Of a stretch of 64,000 nucleotides of DNA, positions 2,986 through 61,262 are shown piece by piece. A program made the position numbers and the translations under genes. Each line of letters opens with the position of its first letter. Within the stretch, counting starts at the first letter, position 1. Under the pieces are notes generated by a model. The model made no database searches, was not told the DNA's origin, and worked only from the letters and a program-made list of their open reading frames with translations. Origin of the DNA: Patescibacteria group bacterium (GTDB lineage Bacteria; Patescibacteriota; Minisyncoccia; 2-02-FULL-40-12; IGHO2-01-FULL-4-A). The stretch is taken from positions 24,874-88,873 of the forward strand of contig JBBTSB010000004.1 of assembly GCA_038064915.1 (NCBI GenBank), given 5' to 3'.

Positions 2986-3818
2986 TTTCTTTTTTGCAAT
3001 CTGATGAGTGGGCGCAATTTCAAAGATCCCTTGGGCGGAAGGTTTTTGACGTCGAAGGCACAAAGGTGATTCGGCATGATTTGACGTTTAAAAAAAATTA
3101 CCTATATGTGCCGTACCCGGATACGGTGCCGAATTTGCTTCCATTGGCGGAGCAAGAAAAAAGCATTTTCATAAAAGCAGAGCCCATGCACGATGAAGTT
3201 GCTCAAGCGCTCGTGCATCAAGGCTATCAAAAATCATCCAAAAACGTCCAGCCACATCGGACCGTCGTACTTGATCTCACAAATAGCGAAGATGCATTGT
3301 TGAGCGCAATGCACCACAAGACGAGGTATAACATCCGCGTTGCGGAGCGGGAACATGTGGTCGTGGAGCAAAGCACGGATACTAATATTTTTTTGAGCTT
3401 AATGAAAAAGACTACCGCACGCGATAAATTTCACACACATTCCGAATGGTACTATCATCGCCTCATGGCATCTCGCGGATTGGATACAAAACTCTGGATC
3501 GCATGGCACGATGGCAAACCCATCGCCTCCGCTATCACGCTGACCTACGGCGATACGGCATATTATCTCCATGGTGCGTCAGACTACGAATATCGCTCTC
3601 TTATGGGCCCGTATCTTTTGCATTGGAAGATACTTTTAAACTTTAAACACTTAAACTTTAAACTTTATGATTTCTGGGGAATTGATGCAAAAAAATGGCC
3701 CGGCGTGACCCGATTCAAACTTGGCTGGGGAGGGCGGACAATCGAATATCCGGGGGCGTTTGATTTTGCTATTTCAAAACCTTGGTATTTTGCGTATACT
3801 TTATACCATGGATTATAG
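2982..3818 (+). CDS. FemAB-family peptidoglycan interpeptide aminoacyltransferase, copy 1
   Basis: 278 aa; FLQSDEWAQFQ N-terminus and C-terminal YYLHGASDYEYRSLMGPYLLHW...YDFWGI typical of FemX/FemAB; ATGA overlap with ruvA; contains the TTTAAAC repeat element. Confidence 0.75.
   Translation: MISFLQSDEWAQFQRSLGRKVFDVEGTKVIRHDLTFKKNYLYVPYPDTVPNLLPLAEQEKSIFIKAEPMHDEVAQALVHQGYQKSSKNVQPHRTVVLDLTNSEDALLSAMHHKTRYNIRVAEREHVVVEQSTDTNIFLSLMKKTTARDKFHTHSEWYYHRLMASRGLDTKLWIAWHDGKPIASAITLTYGDTAYYLHGASDYEYRSLMGPYLLHWKILLNFKHLNFKLYDFWGIDAKKWPGVTRFKLGWGGRTIEYPGAFDFAISKPWYFAYTLYHGL
3634..3667. repeat. TTTAAAC-heptamer repeat element, in frame in femAB copy 1
   Basis: TTTTAAACTTTAAACACTTAAACTTTAAACTTTA encodes LLNFKHLNFKL. 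Confidence 0.65.
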
Positions 3819-4077
3819 AGATATCATTCGCAAAAACCCCGGACTAATCTGGTACAGCCGAAATTATGACGGCTTTGAGGAGTCAACCGTGGTAGAGGCA
3901 GTTTTAAATTATGGTGATTGGGATGAATTTAAAGCATTAAAAGAATCTCTTAGTGTGGAGAGAGTTGCAGAGATTTTTCGAGAGAACGCCTTTCGCGAGC
4001 GCACCAACTACCGCGACGATGTTCGCCAATACTTCACCCTATATTTTGACAAACATGCACCGCGAGATACTCACTAA
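3808..4077 (+). CDS. small hypothetical protein (90 aa), possible partner of the downstream AbiEii-like gene
   Basis: ATG at 3808 overlaps the femAB stop by 11 nt; the ORF ends 23 nt inside the downstream nucleotidyltransferase gene; no recognisable domain. Confidence 0.35.
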   Translation: MDYRDIIRKNPGLIWYSRNYDGFEESTVVEAVLNYGDWDEFKALKESLSVERVAEIFRENAFRERTNYRDDVRQYFTLYFDKHAPRDTH

Positions 4078-8134: not shown

Positions 8135-8172
8135 CTGGCACTCTTGACATGAGAGTGCCAACGCAGTAACCT
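8135..8172 (+). promoter_or_regulatory. CIRCE-like inverted repeat (HrcA operator) overlapping the lon promoter
   Basis: CTGGCACTC-N9-GAGTGCCAA with TTGACA inside the spacer, 17 nt, TAACCT; the ATG follows 6 nt after the -10. Confidence 0.5.
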
Positions 8173-12367: not shown

Positions 12368-13530
12368 GGTGGTTATTTCCGGTATTCGTTTTTTCCGTGC
12401 CTTTTCAGGCGCGTTTTGTTCTTGGATCGTGGACGCAACCCTTCAATGAATGGACGAGCGCGTTTTTGTGGGGAACGGATATTTTATTTGTTCTTCTCAT
12501 AATTTTCAATTTCCAATTTTCAATTTCCAAAAAAGACTTGTTGCTGTTTGCCTTTTTGGCAATCGCGGCGATTTCTATTTCCCAGGCTCTCATTCCCGCT
12601 GTTTCATGGTATCGGTTTGCGAAATTGCTTGAATACATACTTCTTTTTTTCTTCGTGCGGCAGCAAAAGCTTTCTCCACTCGTATACAAGGCCGTTGTGG
12701 CTTCAGCTCTATTGCAATCGCTGATCGCCATCGTCCAATATGTCGTTCAACATGATCTTGGCTTGCGCCTCCTTGGCGAGAGTGTACTTGATCCCCATGG
12801 TCAAGGCGTTGCGGTGGTCGCTGCAAATTCTCAGACGTACCTTCGCGCCTATGGCACGACGCCACATCCCAATATTCTTGCAACATGGCTCATGCTGGGA
12901 ATTTGGGCTCTGTGGGCATGGAGGCCAAAATGGCACCTATTCGTACTTCCTGTTTTGCTTGTTTCACTATTTCTGACTTTTTCCCGCACTGCCATCGCCG
13001 TGTGGGTCTTGTGTTCGATGATTATGTGGTTCTTTCACCGTCGAGACCCTCTCAAGATCATTGCGGTCACCGCTGTAGTTGGTTTTCTTTTCGCAATCAG
13101 TTTTTGGCCTCAAGTGTATTCTCGTTTACATATTTCTTCTAGCGATGAAGCTGTTTCGCAAAGAGTATTTTACAATGATATAGCCGGAAAAAATATACTA
13201 ACCGTTGGCAACGGCATTGGCCAGTTTGTTCCAAATCTTATGCAGAAGCTTCCTCTCTATCCTGATTTTATCTACCAGCCTGCGCACAATATGTTCTTGC
13301 TCATGATGAACGAAATAGGAATTTTGGGATTGGCAACTTTTTTACTATGGCTTTTTGTTGCTGTTCGGAAGTCTCACGTCTTGTTGGCAATTATCTTGTT
13401 GGCGGTATTTGATCACTATTTTTGGACACTTCAGCAAGGGGGATTAATCATGTGGGGATTGTTGGGATTTTTTGTTCGTGATAGAATACAAGAGCCAACT
13501 TATGAGCAAGAAAATCCTTCTATTTCCTAG
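12337..13530 (+). CDS. O-antigen ligase (Wzy_C/WaaL-like) family membrane protein
   Basis: polytopic protein with TFSRTA motif in a periplasmic loop; start uncertain; carries a tandem AATTTTCAATTTCC repeat in frame. Confidence 0.55.
   Translation: MWRTLHTYCLRWLFPVFVFSVPFQARFVLGSWTQPFNEWTSAFLWGTDILFVLLIIFNFQFSISKKDLLLFAFLAIAAISISQALIPAVSWYRFAKLLEYILLFFFVRQQKLSPLVYKAVVASALLQSLIAIVQYVVQHDLGLRLLGESVLDPHGQGVAVVAANSQTYLRAYGTTPHPNILATWLMLGIWALWAWRPKWHLFVLPVLLVSLFLTFSRTAIAVWVLCSMIMWFFHRRDPLKIIAVTAVVGFLFAISFWPQVYSRLHISSSDEAVSQRVFYNDIAGKNILTVGNGIGQFVPNLMQKLPLYPDFIYQPAHNMFLLMMNEIGILGLATFLLWLFVAVRKSHVLLAIILLAVFDHYFWTLQQGGLIMWGLLGFFVRDRIQEPTYEQENPSIS
12495..12522. repeat. tandem 2 x AATTTTCAATTTCC inside the waaL-like CDS
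   Basis: aattttcaatttcc aattttcaatttcc encodes IIFNFQFSIS; same 14-mer family as the groES-groEL spacer inverted repeat. Confidence 0.5.
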
Positions 13531-29820: not shown

Positions 29821-30486
29821 ATGCTTGAGTTTTTAAAGTTCTATAATCGTCCTCAAACCTACAAGGCGGAGATTCGCGTTGAGGTAGAAAATAGGAGCAA
29901 TAAAAAAGCAAAAGGACATCTTGTGGTGCCGTTGCCGCGGACGACGGAATATCAGACAACAACACCGGAGTTTCGCGAGCCGACGATGGCATTTGATCTT
30001 GAACTGGAAGCAGGAGAAAAAAAATCCGTGTCGGTTGTTTTCAAGGCCCACGTGATGCCACGCAAATACAATGGCAAGATTGCACCAGAAATTGTCCAGG
30101 CAAATGAATTTGTGATAAGCTACCTGACCTACGGCAATGCTATAGATGGGTTGTACACCGCGCAAGAGGCGCGAGAGAAGCGGGTCGTGGACTGTGGCGG
30201 ATTTGATACGCTCTTGCAAGATGAGCTCAAGAAGAAGGGCATTGCGAGCAATGTAGTGGCCGGATTTTGGAGCGATGGGAAAATGCATGCTTGGCTAGAG
30301 ATTGAAGGAAATATTTCCGCGGATCCGTCTATGGAATGGCTTCGTGCACGAAGAAAAACCAAAAAATCGGGAAAACTTGGTTTTGTCGGCAGTGACCGGA
30401 TAGTTTTTTCGATGGGAGAGCCCTTCTTACAAAAACCAATCACTGATTTACCACATGAAAACCATCTTTACATCACTCGCGCCTAA
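29821..30486 (+). CDS. transglutaminase-like cysteine peptidase domain protein
   Basis: CGGFDTLL...GKMHAWLEIEG fits the Cys...His-x-W-x-E core of the transglutaminase-like superfamily. Confidence 0.55.
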   Translation: MLEFLKFYNRPQTYKAEIRVEVENRSNKKAKGHLVVPLPRTTEYQTTTPEFREPTMAFDLELEAGEKKSVSVVFKAHVMPRKYNGKIAPEIVQANEFVISYLTYGNAIDGLYTAQEAREKRVVDCGGFDTLLQDELKKKGIASNVVAGFWSDGKMHAWLEIEGNISADPSMEWLRARRKTKKSGKLGFVGSDRIVFSMGEPFLQKPITDLPHENHLYITRA

Positions 30487-31615
30487 CGTCGAAAAAGACG
30501 ATGCTCAACTTGCGTTTCGGCTTTTGTTTTCGCCGTGGCAATGGAAGCGTGGTCCATATATACAAAAATTTTATGAAACGCTGAAAAACTATCTCGGTCG
30601 CGAATATGCGTTCGTGTTTGAAAGCGGCCGTACGGCACTCTATGCAATTCTCAAGTGTTTGGATCTGAAAACAGATGACGAAGTTCTTTTACAGGCTTTT
30701 ACATGCGTTGCCGTGCCCAATGCGGTACTTTGGGCAGGAGCAAAGCCGGTGTATGTGGATTGCAACGATAGCTATACGATGTCAGTTGAAGATCTGAAGC
30801 GAAAAATTACCCCGCGGAGCAAAGTACTTATCATCCAACATACGTTTGGAATTGAATCGGATATGCCCGAACTCATGGCTGTCGCGCGAGAGCACAAGCT
30901 TTTTGTCATTGAAGATTCAGCACATGCACTTGGGTTGGTCAAGCCTCAAGCTGATGCGGCGTTTTTTAGTTTTGGACGCGACAAGATTATATCTTCTACG
31001 TTTGGTGGCGCGGTGGCGACGAATGATCCGGTTTTGGGAGAGCACCTTCGCGCGATCAAGCTCGGTATGCTGTATCCTTCGGGAAGATGGATTTTACAGC
31101 AGTTATTTTACCCCATCATCATGTACATCGTACGAAAAACATACGATTATGGAATCGGGAAAGTATTACTCTCCCTTGTACGATCATTTCGATTGATTTC
31201 CAAGCCGGTGTATCCGGAAGAAAAACTTGCAAAAAAGCCCGCGTGGCAACCACGCCGATTGCCCAATGCCATAGCACTACTCGCTTTGCAACAGTTTGTG
31301 AAACTTGAGAGATTTAATACGCACCGCAAACGTATTGCTTCGATGTATCAAAAACATTTTTCCGGTTCAGGAATTTTGCGATTTGCGCTTCATGCAAACG
31401 TTCCTCGGCAAAAAGGAATATTCCTGGGAGATTGGTACACGACCGCAATAGCGCCTGCTGGAGTGAGCTATGATGCCATCGGCTACGATCCTTCAACCTG
31501 TCCAAATGCCGAGCGGCTTACTAGGGACATCATCAACCTTCCTACCGATATTCATATTACCGAACAAGATGCACAGCGGATCATTTCTACAATCAAAAGC
31601 CTGGGAGCAAACTAA
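30455..31615 (+). CDS. DegT/DnrJ/EryC1/StrS family PLP-dependent aminotransferase
   Basis: AFTCVAVPNAVLWAGAKPVYVDC, EDSAHALG and SFGRDKIISSTFGGAV motifs. Confidence 0.8.
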   Translation: MKTIFTSLAPNVEKDDAQLAFRLLFSPWQWKRGPYIQKFYETLKNYLGREYAFVFESGRTALYAILKCLDLKTDDEVLLQAFTCVAVPNAVLWAGAKPVYVDCNDSYTMSVEDLKRKITPRSKVLIIQHTFGIESDMPELMAVAREHKLFVIEDSAHALGLVKPQADAAFFSFGRDKIISSTFGGAVATNDPVLGEHLRAIKLGMLYPSGRWILQQLFYPIIMYIVRKTYDYGIGKVLLSLVRSFRLISKPVYPEEKLAKKPAWQPRRLPNAIALLALQQFVKLERFNTHRKRIASMYQKHFSGSGILRFALHANVPRQKGIFLGDWYTTAIAPAGVSYDAIGYDPSTCPNAERLTRDIINLPTDIHITEQDAQRIISTIKSLGAN

Positions 31616-32420
31616 CCAAGCGCTCGGCCATCAGACATTCCGGGTCGGTGGTGTGCTTTGTATAAAAACGATTGCCCGTCGCGGGACGTTTTTACTTGTT
31701 CCCCATACACGGACGATCAATCAGGAAATCATCGAACTCGGGCGGAACGAGCACTGCGATTTTATCCGCGTTTGTCCGTTGACTCTCGATTCTCCGGAGG
31801 CACGTTTAAACTTTAAACTCTTAAACTTTAAACGTGCTCCTATTCACGTCCATCCGGAACACGCATGGATTGTGGAACTCAAGGATGATGAGACATTGTT
31901 TGCAGGTATGCGCAAAACCACACGCTACTCTATAAAAAAAGCACAAAAGGACGGAATAGTTGCCCACATCAGTACGGACCTTGAAGCATTTTGGAAGCTG
32001 TATATACTAACTGCTCAACGACAGCAGTTTGTGCCATTTTCGCGAAAGTTACTGGAAGCGGAATTCCAAGCTTTTGGAGACGATGCATTCATCGTCATGA
32101 CTGACCACGCCTCTGCATTTGTCGTGACAACGGAAGATGAAGCCTTCTATCATCATGGTGCATCAACCCATCACCCAACGGCTTCGTATCTAGTGCAATG
32201 GACGGCGATGCAGGAGGCACGGCGCCGCGGAAAGAAATTTTACAATTTCTGGGGGGTGTGGGACGATCCCCATTCACCGCAGTATGGATTGTCTCAATTC
32301 AAACGAGGCTTTGGAGGGTTTCAAGAATCATACGTGCCGACGCAAGATTTTATTTTGACAAAAAAATACTGGCTTAATTACATCATTGAAAAAATTCGCA
32401 AGCTACAAAGAGGATTTTGA
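31569..32420 (+). CDS. FemAB-family aminoacyltransferase, copy 2
   Basis: FLQSKAWEQ N-terminus and C-terminal YLVQWTAMQEARRRGKKFYNFWGV; start set at ATG 31569 to avoid overlap with the DegT gene; contains the TTTAAAC repeat element. Confidence 0.7.
   Translation: MHSGSFLQSKAWEQTNQALGHQTFRVGGVLCIKTIARRGTFLLVPHTRTINQEIIELGRNEHCDFIRVCPLTLDSPEARLNFKLLNFKRAPIHVHPEHAWIVELKDDETLFAGMRKTTRYSIKKAQKDGIVAHISTDLEAFWKLYILTAQRQQFVPFSRKLLEAEFQAFGDDAFIVMTDHASAFVVTTEDEAFYHHGASTHHPTASYLVQWTAMQEARRRGKKFYNFWGVWDDPHSPQYGLSQFKRGFGGFQESYVPTQDFILTKKYWLNYIIEKIRKLQRGF
31804..31833. repeat. TTTAAAC-heptamer repeat element, in frame in femAB copy 2
   Basis: GTTTAAACTTTAAACTCTTAAACTTTAAAC encodes RLNFKLLNFKR. Confidence 0.65.
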
Positions 32421-33198
32421 GGAGCAAAAACGCCGCAAGTTTATTTCGCGTGCGAACCGTTTTATTATTTCTGCTCTCATCACTTCTGCGATCGCAGTTG
32501 TTCTTTTGTTTTTAGCGAATCTTTTTGATGTTCGGGTATTGACGATTCAGTCGCCGTCGTTGATTCCTGCCGAAGACGTGGAAGCAAAAGCGTGGGAAGT
32601 GCTCAATGACCGTCGTTTTGGCATAGCTCGCAAGAAGAATATTCTCCTTTTTTCCCCGCAAAAAATCGGTCCCGCGCTGCAAAAAGAATTTCCGCGTATT
32701 GATGCAGTCGATATCCGTCGCACCTCACTACACGAACTTTCCATTGTTGTTTACGAGCGGGTATCTGTGGGTTTGTGGTGTATTATGATCATGCAACAGT
32801 GCTACTACTATGACGCGTCGGGAACCGCATATGCCAACATCGTGCCATCCTCCGGATATCTTTTTGTTGCGGTTAATGATTATCGGGATCGCAACATATC
32901 ACTTGGTGAGTCAGTCGCCCCTGAAGACTGGCGTTTGCATATCTCTGAAGTCAAAAAAATTCTTCAGTTTGGAGGAATACCTATCACCTCAATTGAAATA
33001 CCCGGAGATTCTCATGATGAGTTTATTATCATTACCCGTGAAGGATGGAAGATTTTTTATGTTAACGATGGCTCGATTCGCACGCAGACCAACAGTCTCT
33101 TGGTGTTTTTGCGCGAAAAACTTGCCCCTTCAGCACGTGCAAATCTGGAATATGTTGATCTTAGAATCGAGGACCGGATATATTATAAACAAAAATAG
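32386..33198 (+). CDS. FtsQ/DivIB-like cell division protein (single TM plus POTRA-like domain)
   Basis: N-terminal cytoplasmic tail, one TM, then a beta-rich extracytoplasmic domain. Confidence 0.5.
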   Translation: MKKFASYKEDFEEQKRRKFISRANRFIISALITSAIAVVLLFLANLFDVRVLTIQSPSLIPAEDVEAKAWEVLNDRRFGIARKKNILLFSPQKIGPALQKEFPRIDAVDIRRTSLHELSIVVYERVSVGLWCIMIMQQCYYYDASGTAYANIVPSSGYLFVAVNDYRDRNISLGESVAPEDWRLHISEVKKILQFGGIPITSIEIPGDSHDEFIIITREGWKIFYVNDGSIRTQTNSLLVFLREKLAPSARANLEYVDLRIEDRIYYKQK

Positions 33199-34855
33199 AG
33201 TTACCGATGGTAGTGACGGGCTGATAGTCGGCAAGCCAGGAGTATTTTTTGTATTTTTCGTTTTGCAGGAAGGTCGCTGATATTGCGAGCCAGCCATCGG
33301 TTTGGCTCTTTTGCAAAAAATCTCGCTCATTTTTATATTTATCCGATGTAAGCCACACGAAGGAATCACCCAAGTAGTACTGCTGGTCCGCCCAGCCGAA
33401 GTAATCAAGCTCGATCTTTTTGATATCGTTTTTCTCAACCCAATCAGCGAAACGCTTCAGGTCTTGTCCCCAATCCAGGTTTGAATCGACGACATACCGA
33501 TAGCCACCACTCGGACCACCGACGGTTTGGTTAAAATATGTTAAGTAATATGGGAAAATTCGAAAGTTTTCCAAAAGAAACCATGCGATCAATACCGGCA
33601 CCGCAAAAAATACTTTCCTAGGCAAACGAACAAGTTGCCCGGAAACCAGAATGATCATGAACGGATATACGGGCAGGAGATGCCTCACGCCGATATTCAA
33701 GGTGCTATGGATGCTCGTGGCCCAATAGATCACGAGCCATAAAATCATCGCGATTTCGTCGATGTGATCTTTAAACTTGAAACGTGAAACTTTAAACCTT
33801 GCTATCGCGATTGTGATAGCGGTCAATAACAGCGCGAGCCAGGAAAGCGGTTCTTTGATCAGATAAACGAACGGAAAATAGATCGGTCCCGCGCTCGTGG
33901 TAACGGTATCTCGAAAGTAGACCGTATTTCCGCCGGCGGATCGTTGTGTTACCATAAGCAACCCCAAACCATACTGCGCAGGAGCCCGCAGGATCGGTTT
34001 TCCGGATGCCCACACAACCGGATCAGCAAGTAGTCGATTTCCAAATGTTTGGAGCAACGTTTCGGTGTCGTGATGTTGGCGGTCAATTGGATAGTGCCAA
34101 ACGTGAAATGCATACACAGGCCATACGACAACAACAAACCCAACGATCATCAACAAGGCTGTCTTGGTGATCATTCGCCAATTCCAAGTGCAAGCGACAA
34201 TCACGAAAAGAGGAATAAGAAGAACAGTCGAAAATTTCATGAGCAAAGCCAGTCCAAACATAACAGCTGCATACCAAAAATATTTTCGTGTTGGTTCTTT
34301 TAAGTAACGTACAAACCAATAAGTTGCAATGAGTACGCCAAGCGCCGCAGGAATATCGGTAGTCACAAAGCGGCTATGCGCCATGACGGTCGGTGAAAAT
34401 GAAAAGAGCGTGACCGCCAAAAGGCCAGCCTTGTCTCCATAGCGTTGTCGCGTCCACCAAAACACCATCCATCCAGCAATAATAAAGATGATAAGCGGAG
34501 GAATTTTTGCTACATGAGTAATGAGCTCAGCATTGTTGCCGGTATGGTAAATCAGTTTCCGACCAAACTCCCACTGGTCGTTGATGTTGGTGGTCCAGGA
34601 ATTTGTTGCAAATGCGTCGTGATTGAGTTCAAGAGGTAGGAGCGCAATACCGGCAAGATCTTTTGCCAACGGCGGATGCTCGGGATTGAGCCGCATATCC
34701 TGCTTTGCAACATACGAATATCCTGCACCAATGTGAGGATCCTCATCAACGATAATTGAATCATTCCAAGCGCTGGCATAAGCAACGACAGCGGCGATTG
34801 CGATAATGATTACTGCACTAGCGCGTGACAATCGAAATGAGAGTTTCATATTCAT
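33161..34855 (-). CDS. GT-C glycosyltransferase, PMT/ArnT (GT39/GT83)-like
   Basis: IVDEDPH loop-1 motif and about 11 TM segments; contains the TTTAAAC repeat element. Confidence 0.7.
   Translation of the reverse strand: MNMKLSFRLSRASAVIIIAIAAVVAYASAWNDSIIVDEDPHIGAGYSYVAKQDMRLNPEHPPLAKDLAGIALLPLELNHDAFATNSWTTNINDQWEFGRKLIYHTGNNAELITHVAKIPPLIIFIIAGWMVFWWTRQRYGDKAGLLAVTLFSFSPTVMAHSRFVTTDIPAALGVLIATYWFVRYLKEPTRKYFWYAAVMFGLALLMKFSTVLLIPLFVIVACTWNWRMITKTALLMIVGFVVVVWPVYAFHVWHYPIDRQHHDTETLLQTFGNRLLADPVVWASGKPILRAPAQYGLGLLMVTQRSAGGNTVYFRDTVTTSAGPIYFPFVYLIKEPLSWLALLLTAITIAIARFKVSRFKFKDHIDEIAMILWLVIYWATSIHSTLNIGVRHLLPVYPFMIILVSGQLVRLPRKVFFAVPVLIAWFLLENFRIFPYYLTYFNQTVGGPSGGYRYVVDSNLDWGQDLKRFADWVEKNDIKKIELDYFGWADQQYYLGDSFVWLTSDKYKNERDFLQKSQTDGWLAISATFLQNEKYKKYSWLADYQPVTTIGNSIFVYNISGPRF
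33769..33798. repeat. TTTAAAC-heptamer repeat element (reverse orientation), in frame in the GT39-like gene
   Basis: CTTTAAACTTGAAACGTGAAACTTTAAACC; the minus strand encodes RFKVSRFKFK. Confidence 0.55.
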
Positions 34856-37813: not shown

Positions 37814-37856
37814 TTGGCACTCACCCCTTGACAGTGCCAACGCATTTTACTAAGAT
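37814..37856 (+). promoter_or_regulatory. CIRCE-like HrcA operator overlapping the groES promoter
   Basis: TTGGCACTC-N9-CAGTGCCAA (consensus TTAGCACTC-N9-GAGTGCTAA) with TTGACA inside, 17 nt, TAAGAT. Confidence 0.6.
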
Positions 37857-37865
37857 ACACATACT

Positions 37866-38153
37866 ATGAAAATCAAACCACTTCATGACCGGGTGCTTCT
37901 CGAGGCGGTAAAAGAGGAGCGCAAAAAGGGCGGAATCATTTTGCCCGAGACGGTCGAAAAGGAACGTCCGCAGGAAGGTATCGTCATTGCCGTCGGTCCC
38001 GGCAAGTTTGACGAAGATGGGAAGCGTATGCCCATGACCCTCAAAAAGGGCGACAAGGTTTTGTTTACGAAGTATGGTCCATCAGAGGTCAAGGTGGACG
38101 ATAAGGAGTACTTGATAGCACGAGAAGACGATATTATAGCAGTAATTGAATAA
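37866..38153 (+). CDS. groES: co-chaperonin GroES
   Basis: 95 aa; MKIKPLHDRVL...IIAVIE. Confidence 0.95.
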   Translation: MKIKPLHDRVLLEAVKEERKKGGIILPETVEKERPQEGIVIAVGPGKFDEDGKRMPMTLKKGDKVLFTKYGPSEVKVDDKEYLIAREDDIIAVIE

Positions 38154-38155
38154 TT

Positions 38156-39877
<1,722 letters not shown>

Positions 39878-42390: not shown

Positions 42391-43559
42391 TGTTCGAGAT
42401 TCTCAAAAAAGATTCTAAATCAAACGCCCGTCTGGGCGTTTTGACGACACCGCATGGTGAGATCCACACGCCGGCGTTTTTGCCGATCGGTACCAAGGGT
42501 GCGGTGAAGGCGCTTACCAACGAAGAGCTCGTCGGCTTGGGCGCGGAAATCATCCTCGCAAACACCTACCACCTCATGGTGTCACCGGGAAGTGAAATCA
42601 TCCGCAAGGCAGGAGGGCTGCATAAATTTATGAATTGGGATCGGCCCATTTTTACGGACTCGGGTGGATATCAGGTGTTTAGTTTGGGTGAGAAAATCTC
42701 CTCCCGACCTCCCCTTAATGGTAAGGGGAGGAGCGAAGGGGATAGTGAAGTAGGAGCATTTAATAAAAAAATCAGCGAAGAAGGCGTGACGTTTCAATCC
42801 GGAATTGATGGGAGAGAGTTTACGCTTACTCCGGAGCATTCGGTGAAGGTACAGCAAGATCTCGGCAGTGATATCACTGTGGTGCTTGATGAATTTACAG
42901 GAGAAATTACCAATTATTTACGTGTAAAAGAAACCGTGGAGAGAACAACACGCTGGGCAAAGCGTTCCCGTGAGGCATTGAGAGGTGAAACCTCTCAATT
43001 GCAGTATGCGGTGGTGCAAGGGGCTATCTTTGAAGATTTGCGGAAACAGTCGGCGTTGGAATTGCGCGAAATGGATTTTGATGGGTATTGTATTGGCGGC
43101 GTGGCTGTGGGAGGAGAAACGAGTGAAGAGCAATACAAAGCAGTTGAGTACTCTCTTCCGCATTTGCCCGAAGACAAGCCTCGACATCTATTGGGCGTTG
43201 GTACTCCGGAGCAAATCATCGAAGCAGTAAAGCGCGGGATTGATACGTTTGATTGCGTCATTCCCACGAGAGAAGCTCGTCACGGGAAAATTTACTTAGG
43301 GGTGAAACCCCTAAACTCCGAATTGAGGGGTTTCACCCCTCAAACTTTGGACATCAGCAAAACAATTTTTAAAGAAGATTTTACTGCGCTCGATTCCACG
43401 TGTGACTGCGAAGCGTGTACGAAGTATACACGAGCCTATCTACATCATTTATTTAAATCCAGCGAAATATTGGCAATGCGACTACTCACGATGCATAATG
43501 TGAGATTTTATTTGCGACTTATGGAAAAGATACGGGAGGCGGTCGCCGCGTCGGGTTAG
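42390..43559 (+). CDS. tgt: queuine tRNA-ribosyltransferase
   Basis: GAVKALT, DSGGYQVFSL and zinc site CDCEAC...H; carries two extra in-frame segments relative to E. coli Tgt. Confidence 0.9.
   Translation: MFEILKKDSKSNARLGVLTTPHGEIHTPAFLPIGTKGAVKALTNEELVGLGAEIILANTYHLMVSPGSEIIRKAGGLHKFMNWDRPIFTDSGGYQVFSLGEKISSRPPLNGKGRSEGDSEVGAFNKKISEEGVTFQSGIDGREFTLTPEHSVKVQQDLGSDITVVLDEFTGEITNYLRVKETVERTTRWAKRSREALRGETSQLQYAVVQGAIFEDLRKQSALELREMDFDGYCIGGVAVGGETSEEQYKAVEYSLPHLPEDKPRHLLGVGTPEQIIEAVKRGIDTFDCVIPTREARHGKIYLGVKPLNSELRGFTPQTLDISKTIFKEDFTALDSTCDCEACTKYTRAYLHHLFKSSEILAMRLLTMHNVRFYLRLMEKIREAVAASG
42708..42731. repeat. GC-rich perfect palindrome inside tgt (in-frame insertion 1)
   Basis: CCTCCCCTTA atgg TAAGGGGAGG; lies within an extra ~22-codon segment (SSRPPLNGKGRSEGDSEVGAFNK). 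Confidence 0.6.
43298..43340. repeat. GC-rich perfect palindrome inside tgt (in-frame insertion 2)
   Basis: AGGGGTGAAACCCCT, 13-nt loop, AGGGGTTTCACCCCT; perfect 15-bp arms; encodes about 12 extra residues. Confidence 0.65.
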
Positions 43560-43811: not shown

Positions 43812-44492
43812 ATGTCCAAACTTGTTTTTGATATAGAAACCATCGGTGAGGATTTTGATCTGATTGACGAGACCACCCAGGAAATTCTCACCAAGTACGA
43901 TGATGATATCGAAAAAGTAAAAAACGGCCTTGGATTTTCGCCGTTGACCGGACAAATCGTTTGTATTGGCGTGCTTGATGTTGAAAAAAACAGGGGCGCA
44001 CTGTATTATCAAGCGCCAGACGACGACTCCTCCTTCGCTAAAGCTTCGGAGGACGAGGCTTCTAATTTTAAATTTATCGTAGCCTCGGAAAAAGAAATGC
44101 TTGAAAAGTTTTGGCAGGGGATTACCGCGTACGATCAAGTAGTCAGCTTCAACGGTCGCGCCTTTGATGCTCCATTTCTTGCAATCCGCTCCGCCATCCA
44201 CAGCGTTCGTCCCTCAAAAAATCTCATTCCTTATCGTTACGCGACTGACACCAACCACATCGATCTCTACGATCAACTGACGTTTTATGGATCGAGTCGG
44301 AGCAAAGGGAATTTGCATATGTTTTGTCGGGCGTTTGGCATCAAAAGCCCGAAAGCTGACGGTGTCACTGGTGATGATGTGACGAGGCTCTTTAAGGAAA
44401 AAAAATACCTCGACATCGCCCGCTACAACGTCGGCGATCTCAAAGCCACGGCGGAACTCTACAAATATTGGAATGAATTTATTAGATTTTAA
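43812..44492 (+). CDS. DEDD-type 3'-5' exonuclease (PolB-exo/YprB-like RNase H fold)
   Basis: LVFDIETIG Exo I motif and downstream Exo II/III-like acidic residues. Confidence 0.6.
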   Translation: MSKLVFDIETIGEDFDLIDETTQEILTKYDDDIEKVKNGLGFSPLTGQIVCIGVLDVEKNRGALYYQAPDDDSSFAKASEDEASNFKFIVASEKEMLEKFWQGITAYDQVVSFNGRAFDAPFLAIRSAIHSVRPSKNLIPYRYATDTNHIDLYDQLTFYGSSRSKGNLHMFCRAFGIKSPKADGVTGDDVTRLFKEKKYLDIARYNVGDLKATAELYKYWNEFIRF

Positions 44493-47205
44493 AAAATATT
44501 ACCAGCAACTCAACAAAGAACAGCGTCTTGCTGTAGATTCAATCGAGGGGCCGGTAATGGTGATTGCTGGTCCCGGCACGGGGAAGACGCAGATATTGAC
44601 GCTCCGCATTGCAAATATTCTCCAGAGAACGGATATTCCTGCGGAGGCGATTTTGGCAGTGACATTTACGGAAGCTGGTGTGATTGCGATGCGAAAACGG
44701 CTTACTGAAATCATCGGCTCACAGGCCTACGAAGTCAATATCAATACTTTCCACGGCTTTGCGCAAAACGTCATACAAACCTACCCCGAATCATTTCCTC
44801 GCATCATTGGCTCGGTAAATATCACGGAAGCTGATCAGATCCGTATCATGGAAGAAATTTTGGAAGAAACGAAGGGATTGAAAATTTTGCGTCCTTTTGG
44901 TGACCGCTTGCACTATCTACGCGACGCTTTGCACGCGATTCAAACTCTCAAACGCGAAGGCCTAAGCGTGGAAGATTTTGAAAAAATCGTGGAACAAGCA
45001 GCAAAGGCCTATGATCCTGAAGAAATCAATACAAAAGCAGAGCGTATCAAACTGGAAAAACAAATAGAAAAAAACGCCGAGCTCGCCACGATTTACGGCG
45101 AATACGAGAAAAGATTAACCAAAGAAAAACTCTATGATTTTGACGATATGATCACCGAAGTGCTTGCAGCACTAATGACGAATGATGAATTACGAATGAT
45201 TTTGCAGGAGCAATATCAGTACGTGCTCGTAGATGAACATCAGGATACGAACAACGCACAGAATAGGATCTTGGAATTGTTGATGAGTTATCATGATGAT
45301 CCCAATCTTTTCATAGTAGGCGATGAGAAGCAGGCGATTTTTCGATTTCAGGGCGCGAGTCTCGAAAACTTTCACTATTTTAAAAATAAATTTCCGGAAG
45401 CAAAGCTCATTACGCTCACTGAAAATTATCGTTCTACGCAATCAATTCTCGATGCGGTAGCTACAAAATTAAGAGCACTTGCTGGACACAAGGAAAAAAA
45501 AATTCAACTTCTTGAGGCCAGTGATTCAGATAGCGAACTCTTTACAATTGCCAAGCTCATTAAAGCAAATGAAAACAGCGCTGTGCTCTATCGCGATAAT
45601 CGTGATGTAATCCCACTTGCGAGGATGTTTGATAAGCTCGGCATTCCCTACCACATTGAGTCTGACCTCGATATTTTGACTGATCCCGACATCCGTAAGT
45701 TGCTTCTCATTTTTCATGCCATTGAGCAGTTTGACAAAAAAGTCATCTACCTTGATCTTTGGGGAGTCGATGCTTTTGAGGCAGAACAGCATCTTCCTCG
45801 AATCCAGAAGCAACTTTCTCTGTGGAAGACCGTGGCGTACAACAAATCGCTCTTGGAACTGTTCGATACGGTGGTGCAGGAGTCGGGTCTTCTCAAGTCT
45901 ATCTTAGCTCGGCCAGATGCAGTCGAAGCCATTGAAAAACTGTCGGTTCTTCTCGATCAAATCCGTCGCATGCTCGAGGTGCATCCGGGAGCGAATTTGC
46001 AGGATTTTTTGGCGCAGCTTGACCGCATGGATCGCCATAGACTATCCATCAAGGGCGCACTAGCCGGTGCGCATCCAGGAAAAGTACGTCTCATGACCGC
46101 ACATCGCTCCAAGGGTCTTGAATTTGACTATGTCTATGTTATCAATGCGTATGATGGACATTGGGGGAATCGAAAGCGAGTAGAGAAATTAAAGTTATTG
46201 ATACCAGAACAACAAGGCGCAGATGATGATCGCAATCTTTTTTATGTCGCTCTAACGCGCGCTCGCAAAGAAATCACTATTAGCTACGCAAAGATGTCTC
46301 TCGATCAGCGTGAGCAGATTCCATCACAGTTTATAGGAGAACTCAAGCAAGAATTAATCGAAAAAATCGAAGAAGAAAAGTTTGACAAACAAATACTATT
46401 TTCACCATCACGGCACACGGGAGCGACGGATATCAAGAATTTGGATTTTGTCAGAGAATTATTTAAGAAACGGGGTTTTGCGGTTACACACCTGAATAAT
46501 TACATCGAATGTCCCTGGAAGTATTTCTTTGTAAACCTGCTGCGCGTCCCCAAGGCCCCCGAAGCTCCGCAGATGTATGGAACAGCAGTGCATGCGGCGT
46601 TGAGCGATATTTTGAATGCCGAAACAAAATCAAAAACATATCTCATTAGTCAATTTAAAAAGCACTTAGCTGTTCAACACCTAAGTGTACATGAGCGGGA
46701 GGATTATGAGGAGCGCGGAGTGGAGGCGTTAGGGAAATATTGGGATGAATATCATGCAACATGGACAAATCCAGTGCTGACGGAGTATAAAATAAAGGGT
46801 GTAGAACTGACGTCTGAAATCTTGCTTACGGGGAACTTAGATAAAATAGAATTACTCAATGACCACGATGTAATTGTAACTGATTTCAAGACAGGCAAAC
46901 CAAAAAGCAGAAACGAAATTATGGGGAAAACTCGCACAGGTGATGCAAGCTATTATCGACAACTGGTCTTTTATAACTTGCTTCTGAATAAACACAAGAA
47001 CGGCATGTATAAAATGCAAGCAGGGGAATTGGATTTTGTTGAACACGGGAGGAAAGAGCAATTTCGAATTACGAATGACGAATGTCGAAATTTGGAAAAA
47101 GAAATTAAAAGAGTTGCAAACGAGATACTAAATCTCAAATTCTGGAACAAAAAATGTGATGAAAAAAACTGCGAATGGTGCAGTTTGAGGGGGATGATGA
47201 AGTGA
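44473..47205 (+). CDS. UvrD/PcrA-type helicase fused to a C-terminal Cas4/AddB-like PD-(D/E)xK nuclease with Cys cluster
   Basis: GPGTGKTQ Walker A, DEHQDTN, TAHRSKGLEFDYV helicase motifs; C-terminal DFKTGK...YYRQL nuclease core and Cys at C...C-x4-C-x2-C. Confidence 0.8.
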   Translation: MNLLDFKKYYQQLNKEQRLAVDSIEGPVMVIAGPGTGKTQILTLRIANILQRTDIPAEAILAVTFTEAGVIAMRKRLTEIIGSQAYEVNINTFHGFAQNVIQTYPESFPRIIGSVNITEADQIRIMEEILEETKGLKILRPFGDRLHYLRDALHAIQTLKREGLSVEDFEKIVEQAAKAYDPEEINTKAERIKLEKQIEKNAELATIYGEYEKRLTKEKLYDFDDMITEVLAALMTNDELRMILQEQYQYVLVDEHQDTNNAQNRILELLMSYHDDPNLFIVGDEKQAIFRFQGASLENFHYFKNKFPEAKLITLTENYRSTQSILDAVATKLRALAGHKEKKIQLLEASDSDSELFTIAKLIKANENSAVLYRDNRDVIPLARMFDKLGIPYHIESDLDILTDPDIRKLLLIFHAIEQFDKKVIYLDLWGVDAFEAEQHLPRIQKQLSLWKTVAYNKSLLELFDTVVQESGLLKSILARPDAVEAIEKLSVLLDQIRRMLEVHPGANLQDFLAQLDRMDRHRLSIKGALAGAHPGKVRLMTAHRSKGLEFDYVYVINAYDGHWGNRKRVEKLKLLIPEQQGADDDRNLFYVALTRARKEITISYAKMSLDQREQIPSQFIGELKQELIEKIEEEKFDKQILFSPSRHTGATDIKNLDFVRELFKKRGFAVTHLNNYIECPWKYFFVNLLRVPKAPEAPQMYGTAVHAALSDILNAETKSKTYLISQFKKHLAVQHLSVHEREDYEERGVEALGKYWDEYHATWTNPVLTEYKIKGVELTSEILLTGNLDKIELLNDHDVIVTDFKTGKPKSRNEIMGKTRTGDASYYRQLVFYNLLLNKHKNGMYKMQAGELDFVEHGRKEQFRITNDECRNLEKEIKRVANEILNLKFWNKKCDEKNCEWCSLRGMMK

Positions 47206-49280: not shown

Positions 49281-50924
49281 ATGTATGAACTCGCTCTCGT
49301 AGTCATTGTTGCCGCGCTTTTGGCGATCGTGATGCGCATGCTGAAGCAGCCGCTGGTTTTGGCATACCTCGCGACTGGCTTGCTGTTCAGTGCGCTGGGA
49401 CTGTACCACATCGCTTCCAATGAATCATTTTCCCTTCTCTCTGATCTTGGAGTGATGTTTTTGCTGTTTCTTGTCGGCCTTGAAATCAACTATACGTCGA
49501 TTAAAATGGTCGGAAAAACAGCCGTTCTCCTTGGCTTGGGGCAAATTCTCCTGACCTTCGGTGTGGGGTTTGTCATAGCGCTCCTGTTTCATTTTTCCAC
49601 CCTCACCGCGGCCTACATCGCCATCGCACTTACCTTTTCCAGCACCATCATTGTCGTAAAACTGCTTTCCGAGAAAAAAGATCTCAACAGTTTGTATGGA
49701 AAAATCAGTATTGGTTTTTTGCTCGTACAAGATTTTGTGGCGATTTTGTTGTTGGTCGTGCTTTCGGGAGGGCCACTTGTTTCTACGCTCATCAAGGGTG
49801 TAGTCCTCCTTGCGGTCATGTTTTGGCTTGGTCGCAAGGCGATTCCGCTCTTGTTTAACAAAATCGGCCGATCTCAAGAGCTTCTCTTCATCGTGAGCCT
49901 TGCCTGGGTGTTTGTGGTGACATCGATTGTTCAAAAGCTCGGCTTTTCTGTGGAGATTGCGGGATTTCTCGCGGGTATCGGCCTTGCAAACTCCTATGAA
50001 AACTTTCAAATTGCAAGCCACATACGCCCACTGCGAGACTTTTTCATACTCATTTTCTTTGTGATGCTGGGGGCTTCGATCACGTTCTTTAATTTTGCTG
50101 GTCTTGGCTGGCCTATTATCATTTTTTCACTCTTTGTTCTCATTGGAAATCCGCTCATCGTCCTTGTTCTTATGGGACTTACTGGGTATCGGCGAAGGAC
50201 GAGCTTTATGACAGGCATCACGATGGCGCAGGTTTCGGAATTTAGCCTTATTCTTGCTGCTCTTGGTTTTAAGCTCCACCACATCAATGAGCAGGCCGTG
50301 GGTTTGATCACTGCAGTGGGAGTCATCACCATTGTTGTATCAACGTATCTCATTATCCACGGTGATTCTATTGTACAAAAACTATGGCATATGTTGGCTG
50401 TCTTTGAAAAATTGGATCCGTTGAGCGAAGACGGTTTTGCTTCGATGGAGTTTCACCGACCCACGATTCTTATCGGTGCCCAGCGAATTGGCCACATCAT
50501 AGCTTCACATATTCGAAAAGACGAGCTTTTGATCATTGATTTTGATCCGTCGGTTGTCGAGCGGTTTAAGAAACACGGCTATGCATGTTTGCTTGGCGAT
50601 ATTTCCGATCGCGATATTTTTGAAAAGGCCAATTTTGACGAGAGTAAGCTCGTCATTTGCACGAGTCCGGATGTGCAGGACAACTTGTCTTTGTTAACGC
50701 AGCTAAGGCACACCAAAGGTCCCCGGAAGATTATTTTGCGAGCGGACAATGATCATGATTCCACGATTCTTTACAAAAAAGGCGCTGACTATGTCATCCG
50801 GCCGCATCTGACTTCAGGCCATTATATTGGAGAAATTTTGGGCAATAAGGAAGAGCGCGACCGCTCCCTCTGGCACGCCCGAGAAAAAGATTTTAAGATT
50901 GTCTCAAGAGAACTACAACATTAA
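49281..50924 (+). CDS. CPA2-family cation:proton antiporter with C-terminal RCK/TrkA-N domain (Kef-type)
   Basis: about 12 TM segments followed by a Rossmann-like RCK domain. Confidence 0.8.
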   Translation: MYELALVVIVAALLAIVMRMLKQPLVLAYLATGLLFSALGLYHIASNESFSLLSDLGVMFLLFLVGLEINYTSIKMVGKTAVLLGLGQILLTFGVGFVIALLFHFSTLTAAYIAIALTFSSTIIVVKLLSEKKDLNSLYGKISIGFLLVQDFVAILLLVVLSGGPLVSTLIKGVVLLAVMFWLGRKAIPLLFNKIGRSQELLFIVSLAWVFVVTSIVQKLGFSVEIAGFLAGIGLANSYENFQIASHIRPLRDFFILIFFVMLGASITFFNFAGLGWPIIIFSLFVLIGNPLIVLVLMGLTGYRRRTSFMTGITMAQVSEFSLILAALGFKLHHINEQAVGLITAVGVITIVVSTYLIIHGDSIVQKLWHMLAVFEKLDPLSEDGFASMEFHRPTILIGAQRIGHIIASHIRKDELLIIDFDPSVVERFKKHGYACLLGDISDRDIFEKANFDESKLVICTSPDVQDNLSLLTQLRHTKGPRKIILRADNDHDSTILYKKGADYVIRPHLTSGHYIGEILGNKEERDRSLWHAREKDFKIVSRELQH

Positions 50925-51834
50925 GAAGTTTCTCAACTTCCTTGAGACTGTCGAGGTCGTGAATTGAAATTAGCAGAGGGTTTAAATGTTTAAAAGTTTC
51001 AAGTTTAAAGTTAGGAACTAAGTCGCTTTTGGTAACAAAAATATATTCCGGTTTTTCTAAGAGTTTTTTGTTGAATGTCGCAAGTTCCGAGCGTACTATT
51101 TCGTAGTCTTTTTCCGGGTGAGGGGAATCTGCGGCAATACAGTGAAAGAGCACTTTAGTGCGTTCTATGTGGCGCAAAAATTTAATTCCCAATCCTTTGC
51201 CACTCGACGCACCTTCAATGAGCCCCGGGATATCTGCGAGAATAAGTCCGCCATGCCAAACGCCAAGATTCGGTTCCAGCGTAGTAAACTGATAGTTTGC
51301 AACTTTGCTTTTAGCGTTGGTGAGTTCATTGAGAAGACTCGACTTACCGACATTGGGTAGACCGATGAGGCCGACATCGGCGATCAGTTTGAGCTCAAGG
51401 CGGATGGTATACTCTTCTCCTTTTGTGCCAGGTTCAAACTCCTTGGGACTTGTGTTTTCGGGACCTCGAAAGTGAAAGTTGCCACGGCCTCCTTTACCGC
51501 CTTGGGCGATCATGACGCGCTCGCCGACTTTGGTGATTTCGATATTTTTGGGATGGACTACCGTACCCACGGGAACTTTTAAAACTAAATCTTCCCCTCG
51601 AGGTCCATCCACAAATTGCCCACGGCCATTGCCACCATCCTGGGCTTTCCAGTCTTTTTTATTGCGAAATTGGTAGAGCGCCCCTAAATCTGAAATTCCT
51701 TCCAGGTACACGCTTCCACCGTGTCCGCCTGAACCACCCACGGGGCCGAGGGATTTCATGTTGGAGTTAAATGCAACCTTTCCATTACCACCGTTGCCGG
51801 CCTTTACGTTGATTGTCACGTCATCAATAAGCAT
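50893..51834 (-). CDS. obg: GTPase Obg/CgtA
   Basis: N-terminal Gly-rich Obg fold (GNGGNGKVAF...GGSGGHGGSV) and G1-G5 GTPase motifs; C-terminal tail contains the TTTAAAC repeat. Confidence 0.9.
   Translation of the reverse strand: MLIDDVTINVKAGNGGNGKVAFNSNMKSLGPVGGSGGHGGSVYLEGISDLGALYQFRNKKDWKAQDGGNGRGQFVDGPRGEDLVLKVPVGTVVHPKNIEITKVGERVMIAQGGKGGRGNFHFRGPENTSPKEFEPGTKGEEYTIRLELKLIADVGLIGLPNVGKSSLLNELTNAKSKVANYQFTTLEPNLGVWHGGLILADIPGLIEGASSGKGLGIKFLRHIERTKVLFHCIAADSPHPEKDYEIVRSELATFNKKLLEKPEYIFVTKSDLVPNFKLETFKHLNPLLISIHDLDSLKEVEKLLNVVVLLRQS
50979..51012. repeat. TTTAAAC-heptamer repeat element (reverse orientation), in frame in the obg C-terminal tail
   Basis: GGTTTAAATGTTTAAAAGTTTCAAGTTTAAAGTT; the minus strand encodes NFKLETFKHLNP. 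Confidence 0.55.
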
Positions 51835-51847
51835 GTACTATTAAACC

Positions 51848-52951
51848 ATGGAACTCACAGTTTCTCAATTTTTGGAAGCGGTGAATCTGCATTTGCGTCA
51901 GCAACAGGTCACCGTGTATGGAGAGGTGACCGGGCGCATCAACCGGCGTGGGGGAGTGACATACTTTACGATTCATGATCAAGAGGAAGACGCAAGCATG
52001 ACCTGCATGGGGTTTAACTCGATCATGGACAAGCTTGGAATAGAGTTGGAGGAGGGGATGGTGATTAAAGTCAGCGGGTATCCCGAAATTTGGAAACGCA
52101 ACGGAATGTTTTCATTCAAAGCTTTTCAGATCATGCTTGCGGGTGAAGGGACACTCAAGCGACAGTTTGAAGCCTTGAAGAGAAAGTTAGAGACAGATGG
52201 GTTATTTAGTGAAGAGTACAAAAAACCTCTTCCCAGTTTTATTAAATCCCTAGGTTTGATTACGGCGGAGGGTCGCGAAGCGCAAAATGATTTTTTAAAG
52301 CATCTCACATCTGTTGGAATTTCGGTCAATTTATATGATGTACGCGTGGAAGGTGCAAGCGCCGTAGAGCAGGTTTGCGAGGCTATCGCATATTTTAATC
52401 AGCACGAACCGGAAACAGAAGTCTTGGTCATCACCCGCGGTGGAGGCTCCATGGAGGCTCTACAAGCCTTTAATAGCGAAGATATCGCCCGAGCCATATT
52501 TGCGTCACGTATTCCTGTGATTTCGGCCATAGGACATGAACGGGATGTGACGATTGCCGATTTTGTGGCAGATGTGCGGGCTTCTACACCAACCGATGCG
52601 GCCAAAATCATCAGTGCTGACTGGCAATCGGCTCCTCTCACACTTCAAAATATAGCGCAATCTCTCAATACAGATGTGAACCGGCTTATTGCTGAGCTTC
52701 GACAGACGATGGCGGTATGGAATTCGCAGGTTCAGCAAAGTATAGACCATACATTTAAACACTTAAACTTGAAACTCTTAAACTACGAGCATCAACTCAC
52801 GCTTTCCAATCCTGAATTAAAACTAAAACAAGGATATGCGATTGTACGGGATAGTAAAAACAAAATTATTAAAAATATTGCAGATATAGCTGACAGTGAT
52901 ATAGTAGAAGCGCAATTCGCATATGGCAAAACAAAGCTCAAAAGAATTTAA
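51848..52951 (+). CDS. xseA: exodeoxyribonuclease VII large subunit
   Basis: N-terminal OB fold, catalytic core and C-terminal coiled region; followed by xseB; contains the TTTAAAC repeat. Confidence 0.8.
   Translation: MELTVSQFLEAVNLHLRQQQVTVYGEVTGRINRRGGVTYFTIHDQEEDASMTCMGFNSIMDKLGIELEEGMVIKVSGYPEIWKRNGMFSFKAFQIMLAGEGTLKRQFEALKRKLETDGLFSEEYKKPLPSFIKSLGLITAEGREAQNDFLKHLTSVGISVNLYDVRVEGASAVEQVCEAIAYFNQHEPETEVLVITRGGGSMEALQAFNSEDIARAIFASRIPVISAIGHERDVTIADFVADVRASTPTDAAKIISADWQSAPLTLQNIAQSLNTDVNRLIAELRQTMAVWNSQVQQSIDHTFKHLNLKLLNYEHQLTLSNPELKLKQGYAIVRDSKNKIIKNIADIADSDIVEAQFAYGKTKLKRI
52753..52783. repeat. TTTAAAC-heptamer repeat element, in frame in xseA
   Basis: ATTTAAACACTTAAACTTGAAACTCTTAAAC encodes TFKHLNLKLLN. 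Confidence 0.55.
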
Positions 52952-61161: not shown

Positions 61162-61232
61162 GGGCTGTTGATAGGATACTTGCAAAAACCTAGCAAATAC
61201 GCCTATAATTAAATATCAAGGTCGATATGTAC

Positions 61233-61262
61233 TTTAAATCTTAAACATTTAAACTCTAAACC
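61233..61262. repeat. TTTAAAC-heptamer repeat element copy in the hup 5' UTR
   Basis: CTTTAAATCTTAAACATTTAAACTCTAAACC between a TATAAT at 61205-61210 and the hup ATG. Confidence 0.6.

Follow-up and report, generated by a model that had tools for sequence, protein, structure and literature searches.

Repeated short DNA units have been described in bacteria in several forms. The palindromic elements of Rickettsia are in-frame insertions of 100-150 bp that add residues to proteins, and very small mobile repeats are represented by the small dispersed repeats of Nostoc (21-27 nt), reportedly described by Elhai et al. in 2008. The heptamers of cyanobacteria known as short tandemly repeated repetitive (STRR) sequences are said to have been reported by Mazel et al. 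in 1990, and the ParG repeats and MetJ metboxes are arrays of short units bound by ribbon-helix-helix (RHH) proteins. In parS of pSM19035, where the omega protein binds contiguous 7-bp heptads, a run of no fewer than four is required and the direction of the heptads makes no difference (PMC9499535). Coding regions carry uptake signals in the Pasteurellaceae (uptake signal sequences, USS) and in the Neisseriaceae (DNA uptake sequences, DUS) (Findlay & Redfield 2009, PMC2817400). The HIP1 motif (GCGATCGC) of cyanobacteria, whose function is unexplained, is over-represented, lies mostly in coding sequence, is conserved beyond codons and occurs in all usable frames (PMC5861425). The TAACTGA repeats of Beggiatoaceae, Cyanobacteria and Bacteroidetes have 2-6 copies and mostly lie within a few nucleotides of a start codon, on its upstream side, and their rare copies within open reading frames (ORFs) sit at protein termini (PMC4679880); for GGGNATC repeats a preference for four units was noted (PMC4692102). 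Direct repeats of heptamers in bacteria have been recognised as a class, for which there is no explanation yet. Here we describe arrays that are distinct within this class, in a stretch of 64,000 nucleotides (hereafter the window; 46.4% G+C) from a Patescibacteria group bacterium (GenBank assembly GCA_038064915.1, contig JBBTSB010000004.1, positions 24,874 to 88,873 of the forward strand), with emphasis on a 30-bp element in the second of two FemAB paralogs (FemAB2).

A unit-chaining search of the window identified six arrays, each consisting of four T[TG]AAAC-type units at a spacing of 7 or 8 bp (Table 1). Coding sequence holds five of the six (FemAB1, FemAB2, PMT, Obg and XseA), and the sixth belongs to the 5' leader of HU; both orientations are represented, and the density is about one array per 10 kb. 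A seventh array, with three units, is present in guaA just left of the window. This genome was covered over approximately 71 kb, and its relatives by short contigs. A 14-mer search gave 12 matches where 1.03 were expected, a number reached in none of 100 shuffles, and arrays of at least four units, of which five were observed, did not occur in 300 third-order Markov simulations. Among periods 4-15, strict four-unit arrays were found in the window only at period 7.

Tandem Repeats Finder (TRF) described the arrays as having period 7 and 4.0-4.6 copies. Most have one extra base in the middle (7-8-7 spacing), and the PMT array is strictly of period 7 (7-7-7); spacings of 8-7-8 and 7-8-8 also occur. 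Nearly all arrays, in all lineages, have four units. The unit logo derived from 55 units of 14 arrays of this genome and its relatives reads Y-T-T-A-A-A-C, with positions 2-7 conserved to at least 90%. Position 7 is C in 52 of 54 units from these arrays, thus the unit is asymmetric, although its TTTAAA core is palindromic. A variant unit is TTGAAAM. No similarity between copies was detected beyond about 32 nt, nor were there conserved ends, target duplications or flank similarity. The varying spacing and the lack of similarity outside these 32 nt show that the arrays are not replicas of one fixed element. A contig 99.95% identical to this one occurs in Hainich groundwater. The arrays were identical in all assemblies of the window's population, and no copy-number polymorphism was seen among these assemblies.

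The FemAB2 array, GTTTAAACTTTAAACTCTTAAACTTTAAAC, was re-read for sequence and frame, which confirmed the claim of a first-pass annotation of this DNA that it encodes RLNFKLLNFKR in the ORF ending at 32420. The same annotation had recognised a CACG...CGTG bracket around the element; the bracket is real and includes one more base on each side (GCACG...CGTGC). The positions given there needed correction. Measured from the ATG at 31569 the FemAB2 array starts at codon 79, not about 85 codons from the N-terminus, and the FemAB1 array ends 50 residues before the C-terminus instead of lying about 25 codons from it. The FemAB1 array, TTTAAACTTTAAACACTTAAACTTTAAAC, encodes ILLNFKHLNFKL and is identical to the FemAB2 array in 29 of 30 positions. 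In the AlphaFold model of FemAB2 the array codes for the end of a helix (residues 76-84), followed by a turn and the start of a strand; the FemAB1 site corresponds to a helix spanning residues 205-219 of this model. The start of FemAB2 is ambiguous (ATG at 31470 or 31569), the NCBI protein of 255 amino acids having a later start, and the ORF overlaps the 3' end of a DegT-type aminotransferase gene, 30455-31615, over window positions 31470-31615.

Comparison with orthologs shows that the motif was superimposed on existing coding sequence through nucleotide substitutions at the site itself. At the FemAB2 element the alignment with 19 relatives is free of gaps, and the ancestral state R-x-I-F-x-x-L-G-F-R is retained in array-free sister lineages; distant and several close homologs have it at this position (P0005, the nearest relative, with NRKIFADLGFRR, and P0019, with SRQIFKNLGFRN, are examples). 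The FemAB1 element is likewise gap-free in an alignment with 24 relatives, the nearest ortholog having IIHEFQALGSRF at the site. In XseA, TFKHLNLKLLNY of the window stands without a gap against RFAELDQALTEH of the relative L223, and no indel was found relative to L228 either; over the array region only 10 of 30 positions are identical, versus 63% gene-wide. Obg is the exception. Its array occupies a linker of variable length after the G domain, which exceeds that of the closest relatives without an array by 4-5 residues. Length-neutrality is therefore supported for both FemAB paralogs and XseA, and is not universal.

The length-neutral replacement proposed in the first-pass annotation was thus borne out at both FemAB sites by gap-free ortholog alignments; a clean insertion with gaps, which it had named as contrary evidence, was looked for and was not found within ortholog groups. 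Its statement that the two paralogs are of equal length at both sites stood for the copy-1 site, which is gap-free, and failed for the copy-2 site, next to which BLASTP and MAFFT place a 3-residue gap. This gap separates the two paralog families with or without the element. The idea of a discrete element that had "hit" the paralogs did not survive the finding of scattered array states, both orientations, partial arrays and no similarity past about 32 nt. Such a pattern agrees with convergent evolution toward a DNA motif, in place and at pre-adapted sites, and does not agree with insertion or with replacement in a single step.

In relatives with syntenic contigs (DegT-FemAB2-FtsQ-like-PMT) an array was found at the same FemAB2 codons on the opposite strand (CGT TTA AAG TTT AAA AGT TTA AAG TTT AAA, coding for RLKFKSLKFK). 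The reverse complement of the window element is 87-97% identical to these arrays, whereas identity over the flanking 96 nt is 56-62%. The array of L226 has the window orientation, with 90% direct identity and one decayed unit (LNFQRLNFKP); AIFTELNFKP and LIFKNLKFK are further partial arrays at this site. A neighbour-joining tree of FemAB2 constructed with the element columns masked contains at least four separate array-bearing lineages, each beside array-free sisters: the window (+), P0002-4 (-), P0007/8 (+, including a half array) and P0013/14 (-). At the FemAB1 site arrays are present in two non-sister lineages, the window and P0135 (L220, CTTAAACCTTAAACGCTTAAACTTTAAAC). At the PMT site, a variable loop of the protein, three lineages have arrays, between them in both orientations, and L126 is without one. 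Those of the window and of L122 (unit TTGAAAA) are antisense to the gene, that of L121 belongs to the same TTGAAAA-variant family and is sense, and the peptides read at this one site across the lineages are RFKVSRFKFK (window), IFNFRFSIFKK and KIENLKLKI. In the S-adenosylmethionine (SAM)-methyltransferase gene of a relative, RLNFKLLNFK lies over a native VLNLF motif, the neighbour reading ...KRVLNLFAYTG. In Obg, the window array is offset by one unit from that of L223, and each still has four units; the three shared units are identical in 27 of 27 positions, compared with 71% gene-wide. No array was found in 42 kb of syntenic DNA of the more distant relative GCA_034680565.1. These comparisons show that the same sites gained the array independently in several lineages and in either orientation, and that the array, once gained, is far better conserved than its flanks. 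They also show what the host sites have in common: the native peptide is already F/L-x-x-F-K-like and tolerant of change (helix plus turn, linkers, loops, coiled coil), and the native sequence already supplies TTT...TTA...TTT.

The constraint acts on the DNA and not on the peptide. In all lineages examined, each leucine of the LN pairs is encoded by TTA, although this is the least frequent leucine codon of the window (7.9%). For a given peptide, the codons observed have a probability of about 1e-4 per array, and the same pattern was seen in five lineages. The arrays are sense in some genes and antisense in others, and one is non-coding. Each orientation of the array has a single open reading frame, giving LNFK- or LKFK-type peptides, which accounts for the recurrence of these peptides. 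Since three units at strict 7-bp spacing make TAA in every frame, TTTAAAC arrays within genes need the 7-8-7 arrangement; the non-coding HU array shares this register.

Table 1. Positions of arrays and associated features in the window.
Feature	Positions	Strand	Description
Array in FemAB1	3635..3663	+	Sense in gene 2982-3818; no indel relative to orthologs
Four-unit array in FemAB2	31804..31833	+	GTTTAAAC TTTAAAC TC TTAAAC TTTAAAC; sense to gene
FemAB2 gene	31569..32420	+	FemAB family, Pfam PF02388, E 4.5e-21
Extended quasi-palindrome GCACG-array-CGTGC	31800..31837		38 nt
PMT array	33770..33797	+	Antisense to PMT_2 glycosyltransferase gene 33161-34855(-); TTTAAAC TTGAAAC GTGAAAC TTTAAAC, strict 7-bp spacing
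obg array	50980..51009	-	Sense in obg 50893-51834 (minus strand); NFKLETFKHLN
xseA array	52754..52783	+	Sense in xseA 51848-52951; FKHLNLKLLN
HU-leader array	61233..61261	+	Non-coding, 4 nt upstream of HU ATG at 61266
AATTTYC x4 array, second heptamer family (reverse complement of TTGRAAA)	12501..12530	+	Inside Wzy_C-like gene 12337-13530; peptide IIFNFQFSISKK
Inverted pair of the AATTTYC family	38152..38229		38152-38180 and 38198-38229, groES-groEL spacer

The arrays of obg and xseA, two divergent genes, are 1.75 kb apart and 95% complementary over 21 nt (50988-51008 and 52763-52783), thus they form an inverted pair flanking the common intergenic start region.

Two functional readings were rejected for the family. 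The 38-nt quasi-palindrome of FemAB2 has a folding energy of -12 kcal/mol as single-stranded DNA (z -7.9). Strong hairpin potential is confined to this copy, the other five arrays folding no better than shuffles, therefore a shared hairpin or RNA element was dismissed as a family property; Rfam gave no match. An internal promoter or terminator was dismissed as well, as no array scores as either. A promoter-like TTGCAA-N18-TATAAT sequence of HU is located at 61180-61209, upstream of the array, and is conserved in an array-free relative, in which a different leader of 25 nt takes the place of the array. Literature string searches with the array sequence returned nothing relevant.

Most likely, the array is a putative cooperative protein-binding array with a heptad register, comparable to the sites of the RHH proteins omega, ParG and MetJ. 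We give a probability of roughly 40 per cent to the reading that the 30 bp in FemAB2 are one copy of a lineage-specific dispersed motif (YTTAAAC/TTGAAAM x4, spaced 7-8-7 or 7-7-7) which was built by substitution and is read by a heptad-register DNA-binding protein, and that they are not an inserted element. The driving force would be recognition of the double-stranded motif by a multimeric protein that binds DNA in a sequence-specific way and reads short units in heptad register. Such a protein would resemble the RHH proteins acting on omega-parS heptads, ParG repeats or MetJ metboxes, and its role might be at the level of the chromosome (segregation, organisation or roadblock-type control) rather than in the regulation of the host genes. 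A multimeric heptad-reading protein is favoured because the units are contiguous and 7-8 bp long, four of them are kept despite the shift of the array, and orientation is free. The arrays share with omega-parS the contiguous units, the number of four in nearly all cases and the use of either orientation at one site. They differ in unit sequence and in location: RHH arrays are in plasmid or operon promoters or in centromeres, whereas those described here are mostly intragenic and chromosomal, with only the HU copy near a promoter. The likeness to HIP1 is limited in that HIP1 is a single 8-bp palindrome present about once per gene, whereas here an asymmetric unit is repeated four times, at a much lower density.

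A number of observations weigh against recognition by such a protein. No RHH protein or ParA, and no candidate or cognate binder, was found among the window ORFs scanned against Pfam, where the only DNA-binding matches were HU and a Trp-repressor-like helix-turn-helix protein. The positions of the arrays have no obvious logic relative to gene starts, and the spacing is irregular. According to the summary of Mrazek 2007 in PMC4679880, among the long simple repeats of prokaryotes those of heptamers are most common, which has been attributed to polymerase slippage, so that period 7 alone is no proof of protein recognition. The non-coding HU copy abuts a start codon, as do the TAACTGA repeats of other phyla and Bacteroidota-like TTTAAAC arrays (see below), which hints at an RNA-level role for at least this copy. 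Furthermore, the trees are quick neighbour-joining distance trees on short proteins, and a sample of about 14 arrays, from short contigs, is a small one. A wider proposal, which we advance with considerable doubt, is that a groundwater Patescibacteria subclade keeps chromosome-wide four-heptad YTTAAAC arrays, either as putative RHH-like loading or organising sites or as the first uptake-type signal outside Proteobacteria, under a pressure that would overwrite near-invariant residues (the E..RRG helix of FemAB) and recreate the array at the same codons in either orientation.

Uptake of DNA could in principle produce the same pattern. If the competence machinery preferred DNA containing the array, biased uptake and recombination would spread point mutations that improve it. 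The properties of the arrays match those of coding-region uptake sequences (PMC2817400): like USS and DUS they are short, dispersed, mostly genic and lineage-specific, they occur in both orientations, they were gained in place through point substitutions, with no indels and at residues of low conservation, and they enrich particular peptides. Unit "dialects" of the lineages (TTTAAAC versus TTGAAAA) also agree with such a drive. In contrast, the motif is an array of four tandem heptads (28-30 bp) and not a 9-12 bp core, its density is approximately ten times lower than that of USS and DUS (about one per kb), and an uptake signal would not be expected to have its units fixed at four. This analysis yielded no evidence for competence or uptake bias, there were no competence genes among the window ORFs scanned, and a literature search retrieved no paper linking DNA uptake sequences with Patescibacteria. 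We consider an uptake-like drive unlikely.

An explanation without function, to which we attach a similarly low probability, is that heptamer-biased slippage or template switching together with ectopic gene conversion builds and homogenises the arrays, and selection removes those that break proteins. The abundance of heptamers among prokaryotic simple repeats (see above), the restriction of strict four-unit arrays in the window to period 7 and the presence of other heptamer families there are in its favour. So are the quasi-palindrome of FemAB2, where flipping the orientation changes 5-6 positions and could be achieved by one template switch, and the burst of changes at the XseA array. The arrays resemble bacterial heptamer repeats in being tandem, within a range of 2-6 units, in the preference for four units (shared with the GGGNATC family), in the coexistence of several unit families in one genome, in their sporadic distribution among lineages and, for the HU copy and the TTTAAAC arrays of metagenomes, in lying just upstream of start codons. 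Slippage, on the other hand, predicts site-specific units in variable number, whereas YTTAAAC recurs at 10 or more unrelated sites and almost always in four copies. Slippage also shifts length by 7 bp, which is contradicted by the three sites without indels and by the lack of copy-number polymorphism in the population. Homologous recombination works poorly on copies of 30 bp whose flanks are unrelated, and the non-coding copy holds the 7-8-7 register as well. Known heptamer repeats are overwhelmingly intergenic, whereas five of the six arrays described here are inside conserved enzymes, where they are kept in frame through the 7-8-7 spacing, are length-neutral and are convergent at the same residues in both orientations. 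The uptake drive and the templated processes (slippage, template switching and gene conversion) are serious rivals of recognition by a heptad-reading protein.

A very small mobile element, inserting in frame and in either orientation into preferred targets in the manner of the Rickettsia palindromic elements or of the small dispersed repeats of Nostoc, appears highly improbable. The near-identity of multiple copies (29/30 between the FemAB paralogs), the two orientations at one site and the location of the Obg and PMT arrays in regions of variable length would suit it, and as in Rickettsia a repeated DNA sequence is in frame within genes and is tolerated by the proteins. The array is, however, only 30 bp long and adds no residues at three of the five coding sites; sequence in excess of array-free orthologs was found in Obg alone (4-5 residues). 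Neither defined ends nor a fixed internal structure could be recognised, as spacing varies and the Obg arrays are shifted by one unit relative to L223. Conventional mobile insertion is thus contradicted by gap-free orthologs, partial arrays and unit-by-unit shifts, and the gap-free alignments largely refute this rival.

The last alternative is hardly credible: that an amphipathic FK-x3-FK segment is selected at the peptide level, for which it can be said that every coding copy encodes FK spaced five residues apart, is opposed by the synonymous codons being fixed to a rare choice, by peptides that differ wholly with orientation (see PMT above) and by the non-coding copy, and that the array is a -1 frameshift site, suggested by U_UUA_AAC being a classical slippery heptamer and by the first unit being in phase as X_XXY_YYZ in FemAB1 and FemAB2, was rejected as the -1 frame reaches TAA within three codons, no downstream structure is shared, and antisense and non-coding copies exist.

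Whatever process maintains the arrays, they indicate that a DNA-level signal can overlie essential coding sequence in an ultra-small genome of the candidate phyla radiation (CPR), recurrently and at a cost to the protein. This implies a strong sequence-specific process in organisms that are hard to culture, be it segregation or organisation of the chromosome, uptake specificity or templated mutation. The 30-bp array provides a concrete probe in a search for a binder, as well as a marker motif for this lineage, and its in-gene copies form a link with bacterial heptamer repeats, a class that is poorly understood. Annotators should treat LNFK- and LKFK-type peptide patches in these proteins with caution, as they are by-products of the DNA constraint and not protein motifs or insertions.

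Other heptamer repeats were encountered in the window. The AATTTYC family (Table 1) is close to TTGAAAC units. Its inverted pair between groES and groEL forms an intercistronic hairpin (-17.7 kcal/mol, z -3.1) that immediately precedes the start of groEL. A third family, AAT[GT]ACG, is represented by two weak arrays (45174-45199 and 47053-47092) in a UvrD/PDDEXK helicase-nuclease gene (44473-47205), both length-neutral relative to relatives. A perfect (AATGACG)x5 array is present in the transketolase C-terminal gene of a relative (L122, 13005-13043; peptide HSSFVIRHSS). A period-7 array of the AAAATCA type, with 3-5 units, lies at 57958-57991 in the coding sequence of gene 57091-58203.

An exact scan of metagenomes with the 28-mer consensus gave at least 91 loci. 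Among the matches listed, most are intergenic TTTAAAC arrays of other taxa, often the 3' arm of a hairpin before a start codon (clpP-clpX, rpsM, folD), and they are treated here as a related but separate phenomenon. In low-GC Bacteroidota-like contigs (loci including L138, L141, L149, L189, L206, L177, L209, L170 and L146) an exact TTTAAAC array of 7-8-7 spacing makes up the 3' arm of a hairpin between genes (GTTTAAGGTTTAAAG...loop...CTTTAAACTTTAAAC), which ends 1-11 nt before the start of clpX, rpsM, folD, plsX and others. The only clear in-gene case among the matches listed is L182 (a metagenome contig with 41% GC), where a TrpF-like ORF has an antisense array (…GYCLKFKSLKFKSVKLIKAI…); thus in-gene copies occur outside the lineage studied as well. 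A loose three-unit pattern scan of genome contigs gave, among the matches listed, mostly singleton chance matches in Bacteroidota and other taxa. Two Logan contigs end at heptamer arrays, L224 at a TTTAAAC array in the SAM-methyltransferase gene (positions 1-29) and L222 at an AATTTYC array (its end corresponding to window position 12530), and it may be that such arrays break k-mer assemblies.

Directly downstream of FemAB1, an AbiEii-type nucleotidyltransferase toxin gene is preceded by a small ORF (window 3808-4666), the two resembling a toxin-antitoxin or abortive-infection pair within a region of core genes. A CIRCE-like inverted repeat (TGGCACTC-N9-10-GAGTGCCA / CAGTGCCA), probably a variant of the HrcA-type heat-shock operator, occurs twice, at 8136-8165 upstream of lon (about 8275) and at 37815-37844 upstream of groES (37866). 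Finally, positions 43298-43340 contain a nearly perfect inverted repeat of 21 nt whose arms are 1 nt apart (AGGGGTGAAACCCCTAAACTC / GAATTGAGGGGTTTCACCCCT).

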